Virus genome (UHGV): UHGV-0094207
Origin: a virus
Strand: one strand, 5' to 3'
Length of the DNA: 41,135 bases
This document shows positions 50 to 18,524 of this stretch, in pieces. A program made the translations under genes and the position numbers. Within the stretch, counting starts at the first letter, position 1, and every line of letters begins with the position of its first letter. The notes under the pieces were generated by a model that did not search any database, was not told the DNA's origin, and worked only from the letters and a program-made list of their open reading frames with translations.

Positions 50-1363
50 TTAACTTACTGATTTTAATAATCCTCCCGTACTGCTCTCGTGGCTATGGGG
101 CATCAATGGGGCAAAATCTGCCAGCTTCTGATTGAGCATTGCGATCTGCTCTGCGCTGCTGTCAGCCATCCATGCACCGTAAACATTGAACACCATCTGC
201 GCGCTCGCATGCCCCATCTGACTGGCAATAAAACTCGGGTTTGCACCAGCAGATAATGACCAGCACGCATAAGTATGTCGTGACTGGTACGCCTTTCTGT
301 GTCTGATCCCCGCGCGCTTTAGTGCCGCTTCCCAGGAGTCGCCTACTGAATCGACCCGGTAGATAAATCCGACCTGCTTACTGCGTCTGACCACATGCGG
401 GTTAAAGACGAATGTACACTCATGGTTCACCGAACGGCCATACTCACGTAACTGAACTTCAATGTGATGTTGCCTGCCCAGCCTTGTCATTTCAGCCTGA
501 TTTTTCAGGATACTGATTGCGGGCTGGATAAGATGCACCACTCGATCTGTGCTTGCCTCGGTTTTCGGTAGAGTGAACTCACCAAGTTTCGTATAATTAC
601 GCCTGACGGTAATTGTTCCCGCCTTCAGATCGATATCTTCCCAGGCCAGGGAGACCAGTTCCCCGTGACGCATTCCTGTGTACACTGCTAATGACCACAG
701 GTTTTTAGTCTGCTGATGCCGGCATGCATCTATCAGGCGAATAAATTCATCACGAGAAAGAGGATCTGGTTCTGCCCTGGCTTTTTTCAGAGGCTTAATT
801 CCCTCGAATGGGTTCACCTCTAAGTAACCGTGATCCGCAGCAAACTGAAACATTCCGGCCATTGTCGTCATGTAATAGTTCACAGTAACAACGCTTCGCC
901 CTTTTGCCGGGAATTTGTTTTTCGTCGGATTCTGGTAACCAGTTAGCAAATCTTTCCTGAGATACAGCAATTCCTCTTTGGTTACTGCTGACACCAGGCG
1001 ATTACCTCCGAGCCTCGGCACCATATTCCTTGCGACAGACTCATAGCGATTGAATGCGTTCGCGCAGATTTCCATCCGTTTCAGATCCAGCCACTTTTCT
1101 TCAAGTTCTTTTACTGTAATGTCTTTTTTACTTACACCAAAAGCCTTGAGGTTAGGGGAGTCAGGAAACTGGGTTGCATAATCAAAGGTTCCTGTGCGGA
1201 TGGCAAAACATACTGATGTCCGCAGTTCCCCGGCTATCTTCCTGTTCTTAGAGGTGTCAGGGACACCGAGACTTTCCCTGACACGCTTACCTTTAAAATT
1301 AAACCAGATGCGTAATGTGCCACCGTGGTTTTCGACGCCTGTTGGATATGTGACTTTATCCAT
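50..1363 (-). CDS. int: Tyrosine-type phage integrase with N-terminal arm-binding domain
   Basis: 437 aa. N-terminal 'YPTGVENHGGTLRIWFNFKGKRVRESLG' arm-type domain; C-terminal region with 'TGMRHGEL', 'HTYA' and R/H/Y residues typical of tyrosine recombinases; sits at the prophage edge next to xis. Confidence 0.9.
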   Translation of the reverse strand: MDKVTYPTGVENHGGTLRIWFNFKGKRVRESLGVPDTSKNRKIAGELRTSVCFAIRTGTFDYATQFPDSPNLKAFGVSKKDITVKELEEKWLDLKRMEICANAFNRYESVARNMVPRLGGNRLVSAVTKEELLYLRKDLLTGYQNPTKNKFPAKGRSVVTVNYYMTTMAGMFQFAADHGYLEVNPFEGIKPLKKARAEPDPLSRDEFIRLIDACRHQQTKNLWSLAVYTGMRHGELVSLAWEDIDLKAGTITVRRNYTKLGEFTLPKTEASTDRVVHLIQPAISILKNQAEMTRLGRQHHIEVQLREYGRSVNHECTFVFNPHVVRRSKQVGFIYRVDSVGDSWEAALKRAGIRHRKAYQSRHTYACWSLSAGANPSFIASQMGHASAQMVFNVYGAWMADSSAEQIAMLNQKLADFAPLMPHSHESSTGGLLKSVS

Positions 1364-4468: not shown

Positions 4469-5492
4469 TGGTATGTACCTGCTGAAGTTTGTGTTGTTTA
4501 ACGAAGTGGGCCACTGCTTTTGACTGGCTGGCGATAATTTTTCTGTCACCTAGGTCGAGCGTGACGTTCTTACCGCGATAAATTATTGCCGAGCCGATTT
4601 CCTTACCGTCCAGCTTCACATACAGCAATTTCCCGATAATCTCTGTCGTAGGGATTGGCTGTGAAAGGCGATAGGTTTCGCGAGCTTCAGCAATGGTTTT
4701 ATGTTCGTCGATTATCGACAGGGCTTCAGCCAGTGCAGTGCCTTGCAAAGTGAACACGCCTTCATCGCTGATTGTCGCCATGGCCATCAGTTCGACGAAG
4801 CGGCGAGCACTTTTAATGTTGAGTTCAGGAGCGATAGAACTGCGCGTAACCTTTGTTTTCCCCTGGGCGGCGGCTACGGCTTTATCGTGCTGGAGAACTT
4901 CACCAGCCTGTTCACCAAACTCGCGAACGCGGTCAACAGCAACATCAACAGACACGGCACCAGATTTAACTTCCTGCTGAACGTCATAATTAGCGGTACT
5001 CAGAGTGAGCAACTTCTCAACGGTCGCTACAGACTTATTGACCAGCTTTGCAATCTCGCTGGTGGTCTGATTGAAAGCGTTATGAAGCTCCTGAATAACA
5101 GCAGCCTGTTCAATATCGGAAAGGGGGAGTTGGTTATTACTGGTCATGATGCGAGCCAGACGCTGCACATCGTTACCGTTAAACGGCATGATATGAATAC
5201 GGTCTACTGGCTTACCAGCTTCAGCACAACGCGCATAGCAACGGCGACGGCGGTGGCCTTCAACAACCCACACCCCACCTTCATCACGTGCGATAACCTC
5301 CAGCGGAGGAACGGTGCCACCGTTCATCAGATAGTTAAACAGGTCATCATCTGCCTGGCGAGTGCGTTCGTCGTCTTCACGCTTGTTGAAACCTTCACGC
5401 ACGTAGATATGTTCAAGGCTGATAAACATCCCGGTATCGGTGCGCTTGATGGTCCCATCACGTGACATTTGTTTGAATGAGTTAGCGGCCAT
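4452..5492 (-). CDS. ParB N-terminal-domain (ParB/Srx-like nuclease) protein with HTH
   Basis: 346 aa. 'VVEGHRRRR' arginine-rich ParB-type motif followed by an HTH-like segment 'LPLSDIEQAAVIQELHNAFNQTTSEIAKLVNKSVATVEKLL'; no ParA partner is present. Confidence 0.6.
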   Translation of the reverse strand: MAANSFKQMSRDGTIKRTDTGMFISLEHIYVREGFNKREDDERTRQADDDLFNYLMNGGTVPPLEVIARDEGGVWVVEGHRRRRCYARCAEAGKPVDRIHIMPFNGNDVQRLARIMTSNNQLPLSDIEQAAVIQELHNAFNQTTSEIAKLVNKSVATVEKLLTLSTANYDVQQEVKSGAVSVDVAVDRVREFGEQAGEVLQHDKAVAAAQGKTKVTRSSIAPELNIKSARRFVELMAMATISDEGVFTLQGTALAEALSIIDEHKTIAEARETYRLSQPIPTTEIIGKLLYVKLDGKEIGSAIIYRGKNVTLDLGDRKIIASQSKAVAHFVKQHKLQQVHTNANYQ

Positions 5493-7622: not shown

Positions 7623-8249
7623 TTAAAGCTCGTACTGAACGCCTTTGACAACTCCAATGATCAGGCAATTACCGTTTATTGAAATGTTTGGATAGCGTGG
7701 ATTTAAGGGAACCAAGAACTTTTGAGGCCCATCGATGACGAGTTTTTTTACAGTAGCCTCGTTTGTCCCATCAAGTCTGGCTACGACTATCTTTCCATTA
7801 AGTGGCTCTGCATCAGGGTCCACTATGACTGTTGCCCCTTCAGGGATTGTCGGAAGACCATTAGGGTTTGTCATCGAATCACCTTTGACCTCCAATGCAA
7901 ATGAGCTATCACCTATCCTGAGTGATGTTTCTACCCACTTATCTACTTCACTGAAAACTTCTGCTGCTTTACATTCTGTAAACTGTCCAGCCTGAACCCA
8001 AGATATCACCGGAATCCTTCGCATCTTGGTTATCAGATTTCCTTCGAATTCAGTGCCATAGAGTATGTAATCAATTGATGTGTTGAAATACTTTGCAAGT
8101 TTCGAAAGTGACTCACCGCCTGGCACATTAATGTCTTTTTCCCAATACCCAACCGCCACATCGCTAACACCACAGAACTTACCCAGTTCTTTCTGCGAAG
8201 TTTTGGTTACGCGCCTGAGAGCTTTGATGCGCTGACCGACAGTTTCCAT
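7623..8249 (-). CDS. cI: CI-like prophage repressor (HTH plus S24 LexA-like peptidase)
   Basis: 208 aa. N-terminal HTH 'QKELGKFCGVSDVAVGYWEK'; Ala-Gly cleavage site in 'WVQAGQF'; catalytic 'KGDSM' and 'VKKL'. Confidence 0.85.
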   Translation of the reverse strand: METVGQRIKALRRVTKTSQKELGKFCGVSDVAVGYWEKDINVPGGESLSKLAKYFNTSIDYILYGTEFEGNLITKMRRIPVISWVQAGQFTECKAAEVFSEVDKWVETSLRIGDSSFALEVKGDSMTNPNGLPTIPEGATVIVDPDAEPLNGKIVVARLDGTNEATVKKLVIDGPQKFLVPLNPRYPNISINGNCLIIGVVKGVQYEL

Positions 8250-13455: not shown

Positions 13456-14166
13456 GTGTATGGAGCGCAAAGAAGCATGAATCAACAAGACCTGAATTTT
13501 GTCAGAATAGAATTGCGCCGCGCGCTACCTGACCTCTCTGGGGGAACAAAAGGGCAGCTTGAGGCTTTCAGTGAACACCCACCAGCAGATAAAAATGCCA
13601 CCCCGCGCCGTGGAATTCATCTCGTCGAACTCGAAGGAGATAAGGGGCCACGCTTTGTTAACTCGCTTTCCGCGCCACTGTATGTGCTGGAAACACGCAG
13701 CCGCCGTAGGCCAATGCCGCCGATAAAAGATGCGGAATTTGAGTCAGCGCCGTGGCGTAGGGCAGTGTCCGCGCTTAGTGGATACCAGCAGGCCTGGTTG
13801 CGGTACTGTTACGGTTTTGACCTTAGCTATAAGCACCAGGTGATGATGTGTGAATACGTCTGGAAAACTTATCAGAAATGCCTGGGTGATAATTCCCTTC
13901 AGGAGCGCGTAGTAAAGAAACTGATTGGCCTGGTATGGCTGGCAGGGCAGGAAATTGCCGCAACCAGAAATAATGAAACCTATAAAGACTATGCTGGTGC
14001 AGCGTTGGCCCGCATGGTTAGCGTTGACCGTTCGACATGGTTGCGTGTCTATTCAGGGCACTGGGCTGGGTTAAAGGCCGCTTTTACCCAGCTTGATGAA
14101 TCTGCGCTGGCCATGGCTCTTGAATACTATGAGGAAGAAGACGCCCTCAAAGTGGCAGAAATGTGA
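13456..14166 (+). CDS. Late-gene antiterminator Q
   Basis: 236 aa in the canonical position before the lysis cassette; GTG start in the ORF track, ATG 'MNQQD' at 13477 is an alternative. Confidence 0.65.
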   Translation: MYGAQRSMNQQDLNFVRIELRRALPDLSGGTKGQLEAFSEHPPADKNATPRRGIHLVELEGDKGPRFVNSLSAPLYVLETRSRRRPMPPIKDAEFESAPWRRAVSALSGYQQAWLRYCYGFDLSYKHQVMMCEYVWKTYQKCLGDNSLQERVVKKLIGLVWLAGQEIAATRNNETYKDYAGAALARMVSVDRSTWLRVYSGHWAGLKAAFTQLDESALAMALEYYEEEDALKVAEM

Positions 14167-14260
14167 AGTAAATTTCACTATCTCCTTCAAACGCGCTTGC
14201 AAAATGCAACAAAATAAGCCATATTTGAAGCATATTTGATATGTTGCCAAAGTTCTATAA

Positions 14261-14287
14261 ACCCGCCTGTGAGCGGGTTTTTCTTTA
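14261..14287 (+). terminator. Rho-independent terminator (tR'-like)
   Basis: acccgcctgtgagcgggt hairpin followed by tttttcttt. Confidence 0.7.
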
Positions 14288-14367
14288 ACCTCTTTTGGCA
14301 CTCAATCTACGTCAAAATCAATATGTTATAATTCCGCTGGTCAAAACAAGCCACCGGAGGCAGTGCT

Positions 14368-14607
14368 ATGAAAATCACATCTGTACATTTCGAAATTCTG
14401 CGTCGAGCAGATGCACTTGGTCCACGTGAAACAATTCAATCTTCTGATCTTCCTCACATTCCAGCGAAAACGGTAGATTTTGCCATTTCAGATCTTGCTG
14501 ATTTGGGATTGGTAAATGCTGTTCAAAGTAAGTCTGATGAAGGTGGGTGGATAGCGATTGAAATCACGTCAAAGGGTGATCGCTATTTAAATGAACTAGA
14601 GGCTTAA
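14368..14607 (+). CDS. Hypothetical small protein (moron between Q and lysis genes)
   Basis: 79 aa; GGAGG before the ATG; visibly AT-richer than neighbours; bracketed by two terminators. Confidence 0.45.
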   Translation: MKITSVHFEILRRADALGPRETIQSSDLPHIPAKTVDFAISDLADLGLVNAVQSKSDEGGWIAIEITSKGDRYLNELEA

Positions 14608-14642
14608 TTCACTCTCTAGTAAAACGCGGGACATAATCTATA

Positions 14643-14671
14643 GGCTGCCATTTGGCGGCCTTTTCTATTTC
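14643..14671 (+). terminator. Rho-independent terminator
   Basis: ggctgcc-attt-ggcggcc hairpin (one G-U pair) followed by ttttctatttc. Confidence 0.5.
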
Positions 14672-15571: not shown

Positions 15572-16092
15572 ACAGAAGCCTCGTTATTGTTGGGATGGCA
15601 GCAATCATCTTCATCGCGGTGCTCTGTGTACTACTGGCGCGCAGCAATGCAGCGTTGACCACGTCAGAGAGTGACAACCGGATACTGCGCAACGATAACG
15701 CACTGCAGGCAACGGTGATAACTACCCAGGCGTTCAACTTCAACCGGTTTAACCAGGTAGCGGAGAACGCCAGTCGCCTGAACTCGCTGATTGATGCCGG
15801 AACCGAAAAGACCGTTATCGAATACCGGGAGATTCTTCGCCGTGAAAAAACCTGTGATCTGCCTGTTCCTGCTAATGTCGCTGGTGGGCTGCTCAACTAC
15901 GCGAACCGTTTACGTGCCAGCGCAATGCACCCCGATACCGGGGACACTGACGCAGCCGATGATAGTACCGCTGCCGCCAGCTCAATAACCTATTGTCAGG
16001 CCGTTCTCTGGATTCAATCATTACTTGCAGAGATAGAGAAGGGTAACAACCAACTGGCAGGGATTAGGGATATTGAGGAAGGGAGACATTAG
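15568..16092 (+). CDS. Rz-like i-spanin
   Basis: GTG start overlapping the endolysin stop; N-terminal TM 'LVIVGMAAIIFIAVLCVLL' then a periplasmic coiled-coil region. Confidence 0.65.
   Translation: MNRSLVIVGMAAIIFIAVLCVLLARSNAALTTSESDNRILRNDNALQATVITTQAFNFNRFNQVAENASRLNSLIDAGTEKTVIEYREILRREKTCDLPVPANVAGGLLNYANRLRASAMHPDTGDTDAADDSTAAASSITYCQAVLWIQSLLAEIEKGNNQLAGIRDIEEGRH
15842..15988 (+). CDS. Rz1-like o-spanin lipoprotein embedded in Rz (+1 frame)
   Basis: 'KKPVICLFLLMSLVGC' signal peptide with lipobox; Pro-rich mature part; entirely inside the Rz gene. The ORF-track start is 15791. Confidence 0.55.
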   Translation: MKKPVICLFLLMSLVGCSTTRTVYVPAQCTPIPGTLTQPMIVPLPPAQ

Positions 16093-16128
16093 AAATAGGG
16101 CCACTTAAAGGTAGCCCAAACGATTCGA

Positions 16129-16386
16129 TTAAGATTTAGAAAGTAGGGCTACAACTCTTTTATGTAACTCTTCTGCATAACCTTCATTTACTGGGTTTTC
16201 AAACTCCACAGGCGGCGCTGATTTAAAAGCTTTATCGTAGCTATCGCCAAGCATACCAGGCTGTTTGGCAAGGGAGTTCCAAGCTGTGGATATCGTGGTA
16301 ATAGCAATTCTTGCTGCATGCTGATCTAAAAGTAGCTCTTCAATAGTTTTTTCGAGTTCATCAATGCGTTTCTGCAGATCTGTCAT
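16129..16386 (-). CDS. Hypothetical small coiled-coil protein, antisense to the late operon
   Basis: 85 aa on the opposite strand between Rz and the glycosyltransferase gene; visibly AT-rich. Confidence 0.45.
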   Translation of the reverse strand: MTDLQKRIDELEKTIEELLLDQHAARIAITTISTAWNSLAKQPGMLGDSYDKAFKSAPPVEFENPVNEGYAEELHKRVVALLSKS

Positions 16387-16494
16387 GAAATTACCTCTAA
16401 AGGGTTGTGTAAATGAGCTGCGATTATATCATTTTGGTGTCAGCAAAAGTGATGTCCAGATAGGAGTCCTGAACCATTTTATTTTGGAGAAATT

Positions 16495-17952
16495 ATGCAG
16501 GTCACTATCGATGGTGTTCCATACGCGCCTGTCTGCAATTCGGTGTCACGCATAGGAATAGCAATCACAACGCATAATCGCCCTGACGTATTGAAGCGGA
16601 CACTGGCGCAGCATCATCAATTTTTACCGTCCGGCGCGCTCGTGGTTGTCATAGATGATGGTTCAAAACCTGCCGCAGTCGTTCCCGACGGCGTGCAGCT
16701 GCTTCGCAATGAAACATCCCTCGGCATTGTGGCCTCGAAAAACCGAAGCCTCGAAGCGCTGGTGGACGCCGGATGTGAGCATCTCTTCCTGTGGGATGAT
16801 GACGCATGGCCGGTTGCCGATAACTGGCACCTGCCTTACATCGAATCACCTGAGTCACACCTGGCTTACCAGTTTCTCGATCTGGCTGGTCCACGAAAGA
16901 TAAACGATATGACCGTCCTGCACCAGGATGATAAGCATATCGCTTACACCGGGCAGCGCGGTGTGATGCTGTACTACCACCGCAGCGCCATTGAGAAGGT
17001 TGGCGGATTCGATCCGGTATACGGTCGAGGCATGTATGAGCATCCTGATTTGGCGCTTCGGATTTATAACGCTGGCTTAACGTCCTGGGCGTTTGCTGAT
17101 GTGGTTGGCTCTGAAAAGCTGATTCACTCAATGGATGAATACGAAGAGGGCGCGCGCAGCATACCGAGGCCTGAACGTGAAGCGCTCTATAAAAAGAACG
17201 CTGTAATTTACGGGCAGCGCCGGGATTCAGGATATACAGGCTATGCCGAATATCGATCTCAGCGCGACGTGGTAATCACAACGTTGCTTACCAGCCAGCC
17301 AGACCCGCAGCGCGGTACGAAAATGGCGGCCGTATCAGACATGCTGACCAGGTGGGCTGCCTCGCTTCGGAATTGTGGCCGTATTGCGCTGGTGGATGAG
17401 CTGCAGACGGCATCGGCAGACGTTGAGTTGTATCGCGTCCCTGACGTGAAGATGAATGTCTACTTCCGGCGCTGGCTGCATATCTGGCAGCACCTGCGCG
17501 ATCACCCTGAATACCGGTTCGTCTGGTGTACCGATGGTACCGATGTCGAAATGCTCCGCGCACCGTGGGAAGAAATGCAGCCCGGGAATGTTTACGTCGG
17601 TTCTGAACCGAAGATCTACGCCGACACCTGGGCGAAACAGAATCATCCTGAGCGTATCTATCAGGAATTCATTGAAGCGCACCGCGGCGATGTGATGCTT
17701 AATGCTGGTCTTCTGGGAGGCACCCGCGCTGATGTGATGGCGTTCGCTCATGGCATCATCCGTCTTTACTACCGGATCGAGAGTTATCGTTTCTGGAAGA
17801 AAGAACAGGCTGGCGCAGCGGTGGGTGACATGCTGGCGTTCGGTATCGTTGCGCAGTCATTCGCTGACAGGTTGGTCACCGGCCCTCTGGTACATACCGT
17901 TTTCAAAACTGATGGTATCGGTAAGGAGGCAGCATGGTGGAAACACAAGTGA
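16495..17952 (+). CDS. Two-domain glycosyltransferase (N-terminal GT2/GT-A domain plus a second GT-A-like C-terminal domain)
   Basis: 485 aa. N-terminal 'GIAITTHNRPDVLKRTL...VVVIDDGS...LWDDDAWP...GGFDPVYGRGMYEHPDLALR' are GT2 hallmarks; C-terminal half has 'RFVWCTDGTDVEM'. Confidence 0.6.
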   Translation: MQVTIDGVPYAPVCNSVSRIGIAITTHNRPDVLKRTLAQHHQFLPSGALVVVIDDGSKPAAVVPDGVQLLRNETSLGIVASKNRSLEALVDAGCEHLFLWDDDAWPVADNWHLPYIESPESHLAYQFLDLAGPRKINDMTVLHQDDKHIAYTGQRGVMLYYHRSAIEKVGGFDPVYGRGMYEHPDLALRIYNAGLTSWAFADVVGSEKLIHSMDEYEEGARSIPRPEREALYKKNAVIYGQRRDSGYTGYAEYRSQRDVVITTLLTSQPDPQRGTKMAAVSDMLTRWAASLRNCGRIALVDELQTASADVELYRVPDVKMNVYFRRWLHIWQHLRDHPEYRFVWCTDGTDVEMLRAPWEEMQPGNVYVGSEPKIYADTWAKQNHPERIYQEFIEAHRGDVMLNAGLLGGTRADVMAFAHGIIRLYYRIESYRFWKKEQAGAAVGDMLAFGIVAQSFADRLVTGPLVHTVFKTDGIGKEAAWWKHK

Positions 17953-18524
17953 AGTTTGTTGTGGTTGGCCATCATTCCCGTTACGCCTCAGCTGCATTGC
18001 TGGCTGGTGAACTTGGCGCGCACCTTCTTATCGATGAAGGGAATCACGGGGCTAACTGGAATCACCGGCGCGCTATCGAATGGGCTGCTGAGCAGCCTTG
18101 CCGGGTGGTGGTACTGGAAGACGACGCGCTGCCTGTACGTGGATTCAGAGACAAGCTTACGGGCTGGCTGGCTCGTTTCCCTGGCGACATGCTTAGTTTT
18201 TATCTGGGCACCGGGCGGCCACCGCAATACCAAATGCAGATAGCTGAACGCCTGATTAATGCGGATAAGGTGAGGTCTGACTTCATTATGCTGCAACGCC
18301 TGATACATGGCGTGTGCTACAGCATACCGCCTCAAAGCATCAGCCGTGTGCTGTCTCAATGGGACGGCAGTAAGCCTGCCGATTATGCCGTGGGCGATGC
18401 TTATGGTGGCGTTGTCGTCTATCCCTGTTGGTCGCTGGTGGACCACGCAGACGGCGAACCGGTTGAGCGTCACCCTGACTCAGCACCACGAACAGAACGC
18501 CGCCGGGCGTGGAGGTTAGCCTGA
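17934..18524 (+). CDS. Hypothetical protein, possible GT-A/GT25-like glycosyltransferase
   Basis: 196 aa; 'KFVVVGHHSRY...CRVVVLEDDALP' resembles the N-terminal strand and acidic motif of LPS-type glycosyltransferases; overlaps the upstream gene by 19 nt. Confidence 0.35.
   Translation: MVETQVKFVVVGHHSRYASAALLAGELGAHLLIDEGNHGANWNHRRAIEWAAEQPCRVVVLEDDALPVRGFRDKLTGWLARFPGDMLSFYLGTGRPPQYQMQIAERLINADKVRSDFIMLQRLIHGVCYSIPPQSISRVLSQWDGSKPADYAVGDAYGGVVVYPCWSLVDHADGEPVERHPDSAPRTERRRAWRLA

Follow-up and report, generated by a model that had tools for sequence, protein, structure and literature searches.

The pid gene of phage P22 encodes an 86-aa antisense moron product, and it is the protein rather than an RNA that derepresses the host dgoRKAT operon (PMC3573128). 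Pid has been identified by mass spectrometry, and a frameshift at its start codon abolished the phenotype; in Salmonella, deletion of dgoR renders dgo expression constitutive and multicopy dgoR abolishes the Pid effect (PMC3573128). Direct binding of Pid to DgoR is not reported in the P22 Pid studies cited here. The P22 pid promoter is weak, with an eroded -10 element (AATCCT) and a transcription start site (TSS) 174 nt upstream of the ATG; promoter activity is absent from the proximal 244 bp, pid mRNA needs the 3' hairpin, a functional Rho-independent terminator, for its stability, and the locus yields more than one RNA species (PMC8835761). In wild-type P22 lysogens Pid is too scarce to derepress dgo, and -10 up-mutations lead to constitutive derepression in lysogens (PMC8835761). 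The pid gene of phage BTP1, which is identical to P22 pid, is transcribed in lysogens at TPM > 100 (PMC7067206). Antisense placement in the late region has been stated for P22 and for an Enterobacter homologue (PMC3573128, PMC3694060), the latter noted in 2013 in an Enterobacter cloacae prophage, where it lies antisense to the late genes (PMC3694060). P22 Pid is the core of phrog_16546, a PHROG family that carries no functional label, and P22 pid is still called an ORFan in the literature, its purpose and regulation being unclear.

Here we describe an antisense gene at positions 16129-16386 of a viral genome (UHGV-0094207), the whole 41,135-nt stretch of which is referred to below as the window. 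The original prediction was that these positions encode an 85-aa coiled-coil protein in the place where lambda carries bor, that the protein is expressed in lysogens, and that it perhaps regulates the adjacent glycosyltransferase operon; it also called for a homology and structure search. That search was run and gave full-length homology to P22 Pid together with a four-helix AlphaFold model. Because an Enterobacter cloacae pid homologue was noted in 2013 and a PHROG family exists, the 85-aa gene is not categorically new; what it adds is a Pid member from a host genus and a phage backbone that are new for the family, and its predicted promoter is built differently.

Results

Genomic context of the antisense gene

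Gene-by-gene annotation across the 41-kb window identified a complete lambdoid prophage, an HK97-like phage whose host is the Citrobacter freundii complex. The main features are as follows:

50-1363, minus strand: integrase
7623-8249, minus strand: CI-like repressor
13456-14166, plus strand: Q, preceded by CII, replication genes, Dam and DUF968
up to 16092 (Rz stop), plus strand: holin, lysozyme and Rz/Rz1
16093-16494: low-GC moron segment, GC 0.398, from the Rz stop to the glycosyltransferase start
16129-16386, minus strand: Pid-family ORF, 85 aa, 9.5 kDa, pI 5.1, all-helical
16495-18524, plus strand: two glycosyltransferases
3' of the glycosyltransferases, plus strand: HNH, small and large terminase, HK97-type head, tail and tail fibres

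The long ORFs that tile 13.4-40.4 kb (Q, holin, lysozyme, Rz, glycosyltransferases, HNH, terminase, head and tail) all lie on the plus strand, and ORF 16129-16386 is therefore antisense to the late operon; the opposite orientation that had been predicted is thus confirmed by the coordinates and strand of every neighbouring long ORF. The likeness in position to lambda bor also held, since bor is antisense and starts 31 nt past Rz in lambda. From the Rz stop (16092) to the glycosyltransferase start (16495) there is a gap of 402 nt with no other ORF; the 85-aa ORF is separated from the glycosyltransferase start by an intergenic region of 108 nt (16387-16494). On its other side 36 nt separate it from Rz. 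Its start is the earliest possible ATG, and a Shine-Dalgarno sequence, GAGG, lies 7 nt from that ATG at 16394-16397 on the minus strand. An Rz1 (o-spanin) ORF with the lipobox LVGC is embedded in the +1 frame inside Rz (15791-15988, plus strand), and the lysis cassette is therefore a full holin-endolysin-Rz/Rz1 set.

Windowed GC calculation bore out the claim that the segment is AT-rich: GC content was 0.407 for the ORF and 0.398 for the segment 16093-16494, against a window mean of 0.512 and flanks of 0.53-0.55, and only 3.5% of 258-nt sliding windows over the stretch were as AT-rich as the ORF. A drop in GC was present in every Pid-family locus examined (ORF, 0.39-0.47; flanks, 0.46-0.57), and in related phages, namely HK542 and most of the IMG/VR glycosyltransferase loci, the slot of the pid-like gene is empty or otherwise occupied. 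Moron boundaries are not definable by DNA comparison with HK542, as homology begins only inside the glycosyltransferase gene. Deviant composition, presence or absence among related phages, and an autonomous unit of predicted promoter, ORF and predicted terminator support the view that the 85-aa gene is a genuine moron.

The 485-aa glycosyltransferase next to the gene has 92% identity to HK542 gp55. Its full-length identity to the glycosyltransferases of more than 560 mycobacteriophages is 42-44%, which is strikingly high for proteins from different phyla. Capsid glycosylation has been suggested as the role of such gene pairs in cluster F1 mycobacteriophages (PMC11256854), and by analogy enterobacterial HK97-like phages may glycosylate their virions rather than the host O-antigen.

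Homology to P22 Pid and distribution of the family

In a translated search (tblastn) of phage genomes, pid of P22, BTP1 and their kin was the single group of relatives found. P22/BTP1 Pid was 39.8% identical to the 85-aa protein over residues 1-83 in an ungapped alignment, pairwise BLASTP against P22 Pid gave an E value of 5e-23, and both the 85-aa protein (E 1e-18) and P22 Pid (E 9e-51) matched phrog_16546 end to end. Judged by this similarity, the 85-aa gene product is a distant relative of P22 Pid and a member of its family (phrog_16546).

The Pid family is small and narrowly distributed. An exhaustive profile search (E <= 1e-3) found 26 representatives among 1.84 billion cluster representatives, mostly 80-92 aa in length with a few shorter fragments or N-terminal extensions of up to 112 aa, and a scan of genome contigs with a 17-sequence alignment returned one Buttiauxella locus, a low yield that we attribute to the rarity of this prophage in species-representative genomes. 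The exact 85-aa protein was present on 192 contigs of the Citrobacter freundii complex, where it is annotated as 'hypothetical protein'.

Database homologues form two clades that are bridged by intermediate sequences. The window-like clade (Citrobacter, Pseudescherichia, Enterobacter) spans 69-99% identity, the P22-like clade comprises sequences from Salmonella, Enterobacter and Pantoea, and identity between the clades is 36-48% in an ungapped alignment. Common to both are the core motif LxLDxHAxRVAIxxLS and G47, Y50, Y70 and LL81-82, the best-conserved polar positions being D21, H23, R26, S33, Y50 and Y70. Three Enterobacter representatives (P0004, P0010 and P0014) place both clades, at ~40% identity to each other, in prophages of one genus.

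Predicted structure of the 85-aa protein

The proposed coiled coil survived in part. A heptad a/d pattern is conserved, in residues 4-18 only (L4, I8, L11, I15 and L18), whereas the AlphaFold model (AF2 monomer, pLDDT 72.8) has four short helices (residues 3-17, 22-40, 45-56 and 70-84) rather than one long coiled coil. Matches to the coiled-coil proteins HSBP1 (Pfam) and ZapB were sub-threshold, and sub-threshold HSBP1 was all that the Pfam search returned. A profile search of PDB sequences gave nothing below E 0.07, PADLOC gave a chance-level PbeC match only and NCBIfam gave none; no DNA-binding domain was recognisable with Pfam or NCBIfam. The N-terminus, MTDLQKRIDELEK, is charged and lacks a hydrophobic stretch and cysteine, and the protein has no signal peptide or lipobox.

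Purifying selection on the reading frame

For pairs of pid-family genes spanning 12% to 60% protein divergence, dN/dS was 0.08-0.27, and reading frame and length are kept in relatives down to about 30% protein identity. The ORF is thus a real gene under purifying selection. Lack of conservation of the ORF in related prophages had been named, together with lack of a transcript, as an outcome that would speak against the gene; the ORF proved to be conserved in relatives, at equal length. Constant length among family representatives, together with the low dN/dS, also rules out a spurious ORF. A search of positions 15800-16800 against Rfam gave zero matches.

Conserved locus anatomy and terminator

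At every Pid-family locus examined the gene is antisense, with its 3' end toward the lysis cassette and its 5' end toward the terminase/head genes, and this placement holds across three unrelated packaging systems:

lambda-type Nu1/GpA packaging: pid homologue in Enterobacter loci L006-L010
HK97-type TerL with HNH: pid-like gene in the window, L003 and L011
P22-type packaging: pid in P22, BTP1 and Pantoea loci L012/L013

In the Enterobacter loci of the first group a non-coding gap of ~430 nt (about 4575-5000) lies between the pid homologue and the Nu1-like small terminase gene; cos presumably lies in this gap, in which case pid would sit at the very right-hand end of the chromosome in the virion. 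Two IMG/VR loci (L067, 2663-2914; L094, 2659-2913) carry pid alleles that diverge from each other and have 61% and 49% identity to other members; both lie antisense and 86-87 nt upstream of homologues of the 485-aa glycosyltransferase. Apparently, different alleles have come to occupy this slot on repeated occasions, or else alleles and flanks recombine independently of one another.

The elements that flank the window ORF, all predicted, are as follows:

16088-16117, minus strand: intrinsic terminator, stem-loop GGGCUACCUUUAAGUGGCCC (16117-16098) followed by UAUUUCUAAU (16097-16088)
16387-16416, minus strand: 5' UTR of ~30 nt, carrying the Shine-Dalgarno GAGG
16423-16431, minus strand: sigma-70 extended -10 TGATATAAT (perfect TGnTATAAT), the -10 ending 36 nt before the ATG
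16476-16505, minus strand: weaker alternative promoter-like site GTGACC-18-TAAAAT (9/12 in a consensus scan), overlapping the glycosyltransferase start codon, a possible alternative source of a TSS

The hairpin of the terminator, found by a terminator scan, has a folding energy of -12.1 kcal/mol (z -2.46). We assign it to the minus strand because there is no U-tract on the plus strand; its own U-tract overlaps the last codons and stop of Rz on the opposite strand. A hairpin of -9.5 kcal/mol or lower within 55 nt of the stop codon occurred at 12 of 13 distinct family loci and in 1% of shuffles, and among these loci the stem sequences differ while the pairing is kept.

Promoter and leader

Two perfect extended -10 matches occur in the window (0.76 expected), one upstream of the 85-aa gene and the other preceding a second moron described below. 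The former would place the TSS at about 16414-16418 on the minus strand and yield a transcript of ~320 nt (from ~16416 to ~16090) that overlaps neighbouring genes by the last few bases of Rz only. The predicted leader has next to no structure (-1.5 kcal/mol, a weaker fold than that of shuffles), and the ribosome-binding site should therefore be accessible. The element TGnTAnnnT recurs at -45 to -48 in four window-clade lineages, the window (WIN), L011, L006/L010 and L014, which represent Citrobacter, Pseudescherichia, Enterobacter and Buttiauxella; there is little conservation around it, and the P22 clade lacks it. The promoter region contained no LexA box, no CI-operator-like sites and no k-mers common to immunity-region operators. 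A 6-nt inverted repeat, AAATGA/TCATTT (16411-16416 and 16429-16434, 12 nt apart), brackets the predicted -10 hexamer, and related loci also have a CATTT element downstream of the -10; the repeat could be an operator or a chance occurrence and is too short to interpret.

Expression of the 85-aa gene from the prophage is plausible, given the predicted promoter and the transcription of BTP1 pid in lysogens. Of the proposal of a lysogeny-expressed moron, moron status is thus upheld by composition, patchy presence and the build of the unit, and prophage expression stands as plausible by analogy. The divergent intergenic region that had been described likewise proved to be real as a 108-nt interval, but a shared divergent promoter in it is not supported, since a plus-strand promoter was not predicted there.

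A second self-contained low-GC moron (GC 0.375-0.425) lies between Q and the holin gene at 14259-14661 on the plus strand:

14259-14280, plus strand: terminator, probably tR' of the late leader
14324-14332, plus strand: extended -10 TGTTATAAT, the window's only other perfect match
14368-14607, plus strand: 79-aa ORF matching phrog_32916 (E 1e-26), with weak winged-helix-like DUF2513 similarity
14642-14661, plus strand: terminator at the end of the second moron

Its build is that of the pid-like unit, but it lies on the late-operon strand.

Conservation of the presumed host target

DgoR is at least 86% identical across Escherichia coli, Salmonella, Enterobacter, Klebsiella and Pantoea (86-96% across hosts), among which Salmonella, Enterobacter and Pantoea carry pid genes, and Enterobacter has a single DgoR that is 96% identical to that of E. 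coli. No Citrobacter names were present among the sampled members of the DgoR cluster, and for this genus the literature gave only dgoR of Citrobacter rodentium, in which dgoR and dgoD are expressed.

Discussion

Proposed function

The explanation that fits best, and that we consider probable though well short of secure, is that the locus is a self-contained Pid-family moron unit which is expressed from the prophage and acts on host DgoR and the dgo operon. Transcription would start at the unit's own sigma-70 extended -10, TGATATAAT, and end at the intrinsic terminator inside the 3' end of Rz. The predicted promoter would require no phage activator, and since the region also holds no CI-operator- or LexA-like site, expression would be expected as long as the late operon is silent, both in the lysogen and in any unintegrated carrier state; during lytic growth, convergent Q-antiterminated late transcription would oppose the gene. 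By homology, the small acidic helical protein would act on the host rather than on the phage, relieving repression by the GntR/FadR-family regulator DgoR so that D-galactonate uptake and catabolism (the dgo operon) would be turned on. The protein would most likely do so as a stoichiometric antagonist of the repressor, given that in Salmonella the effect is titrated by additional DgoR. Conversion of lysogens by the window allele may be constitutive and not limited to carrier cells.

Alternative explanations

The reading that competes most directly keeps the Pid fold and the moron but changes the target: the window clade would antagonise a different host protein, either another GntR/FadR-family sugar-acid repressor or an unrelated factor, and the output would not be D-galactonate catabolism. 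The two clades are only 36-48% identical while DgoR is 86-96% identical across their hosts, and, because both clades occur in Enterobacter with one highly conserved DgoR, Pid divergence does not track the presumed target. The P22 residue T84 is not conserved, and DgoR was not found in C. freundii among the sampled cluster members. At 40% identity, transfer of the target from P22 Pid to the 85-aa protein is uncertain. Yet the top conserved polar positions are found in both clades, which points to a shared surface of interaction; the clades do not differ in length, predicted helices or genomic placement, and none of the data indicate an alternative target. We regard a change of target as unlikely, and action on DgoR remains the preferred reading.

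Three further readings concern the locus itself. That the 85-aa protein regulates the adjacent glycosyltransferase genes (16495-18524) through the 108-nt divergent region, as had been suggested, draws on the adjacency seen in the window as well as in relatives from C. freundii and Pseudescherichia, and on the two other divergent pid alleles that lie 86-87 nt upstream of a homologue of the first glycosyltransferase; but most pid lineages (Enterobacter, Pantoea, Salmonella and other loci) have no such neighbour, of 78 IMG/VR loci that encode a close relative of the 485-aa glycosyltransferase 73 lack pid, and HK542 has an unrelated plus-strand gene in the slot. The promoter scan predicted no plus-strand promoter in the 108-nt region, the glycosyltransferase genes belong to the Q-dependent late operon, the 85-aa protein has no recognisable DNA-binding domain, and P22 Pid targets the host operon dgoRKAT rather than phage genes. 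The pid and glycosyltransferase modules occur independently and adjoin because both occupy the lysis/terminase junction, so that this part of the original prediction was not borne out and is very improbable. Similarly improbable is a functional product that is an antisense RNA, or convergent transcription that damps late read-through into the structural genes, with the ORF being incidental. In favour of this are the convergence of the unit with the late operon, the overlap between its terminator U-tract and the Rz stop, and the more than one RNA species made from P22 pid (PMC8835761); against it stand the dN/dS of 0.08-0.27, the retention of ORF length and frame to about 30% protein identity, the good Shine-Dalgarno sequence and open leader, the absence of an Rfam match, the overlap of the predicted transcript with neighbouring coding sequence by a few Rz nucleotides only, and the loss of the P22 phenotype on frameshifting of the start codon (PMC3573128). 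Position and orientation, finally, match those of lambda bor, which would fit a Bor-like lysogenic-conversion surface lipoprotein; however, no alignment with Bor was obtained at E <= 100, Pfam Lambda_Bor was unmatched, and the N-terminus MTDLQKRIDELEK is charged and has neither signal peptide nor lipobox. These sequence results rule out Bor membership, and a Bor-like function is next to impossible.

Significance

The Pid-type unit acting on host DgoR, as favoured above, does not reveal a new kind of system; the value of the locus lies in annotation and in natural promoter variants. The Pid assignment gives a functional lead for annotating genes now listed as 'hypothetical protein', and a conserved unit is shown, with antisense lysis/head placement, a 3' terminator and purifying selection, that spans several enterobacterial genera and three phage architectures. 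Among the natural alleles the promoters differ widely, which makes control of dgo derepression by Pid dosage testable, and the same variants allow a test of whether temperate phages adjust the sugar-acid metabolism of their hosts. Host sugar-acid metabolism is implicated in gut colonisation. A more far-reaching proposal, which we advance tentatively as possible but not probable, is that the window clade has a naturally strong promoter that needs no activator and would therefore convert every lysogen constitutively by rewiring a sugar-acid regulon of the host, through DgoR or, in view of the 60% divergence between clades with hosts in common, through another GntR/FadR-type repressor. If that is true, Pid would be the founder of a small family of phage anti-repressors aimed at host carbon metabolism, rather than an oddity of P22 confined to the carrier state.

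Comparison with known systems

The locus shares features with several described systems. Like the morons of HK97/HK022-type lambdoid phages, it is an autonomous unit inserted between two operon genes, with deviant composition and variable occupancy of the slot, that class being set by architecture and not by homology. The HK542 gp73-like gene occupies the equivalent slot but lies on the plus strand and is unrelated to the 85-aa ORF. Lambda bor resembles the 85-aa gene as a small lysogen-expressed accessory gene, antisense and directly downstream of Rz (lysogen expression of the 85-aa gene being predicted), whereas Bor is a secreted outer-membrane lipoprotein and the 85-aa protein is cytoplasmic and helical, with no signal peptide and no sequence similarity to it. 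Repression of pckA by lambda CI, discussed in PMC3573128, is alike in that a temperate-phage product alters a specific host carbon-metabolism locus; CI, however, is a DNA-binding repressor at a host promoter, while Pid-type proteins have no recognisable DNA-binding domain and derepress, probably by antagonising a host repressor.

The closest likeness is to P22 Pid, which agrees with the 85-aa protein and its gene in length (86 and 85 aa), acidity, all-helical structure, low GC, antisense lysis/head placement and moron behaviour, and in having its own promoter and a 3' Rho-independent terminator, both of which are predicted for the 85-aa gene. The P22 function (dgo derepression and carrier-state expression) may carry over to the 85-aa protein by homology. 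P22 differs in its Salmonella host and P22-type backbone, as opposed to the Citrobacter freundii complex and an HK97-type head/terminase with HNH, and T84 of P22 Pid, the only residue known to matter (T84M mutant), is K84 in the 85-aa protein. In place of the eroded -10 and 174-nt 5' UTR of P22 pid, the window allele has a predicted consensus extended -10 and a leader of ~30 nt. A weak distal promoter with a long leader is a locus-level trait of P22/BTP1 and not a defining one for the Pid family, and the window allele looks like a natural 'promoter-up' version of P22 pid.
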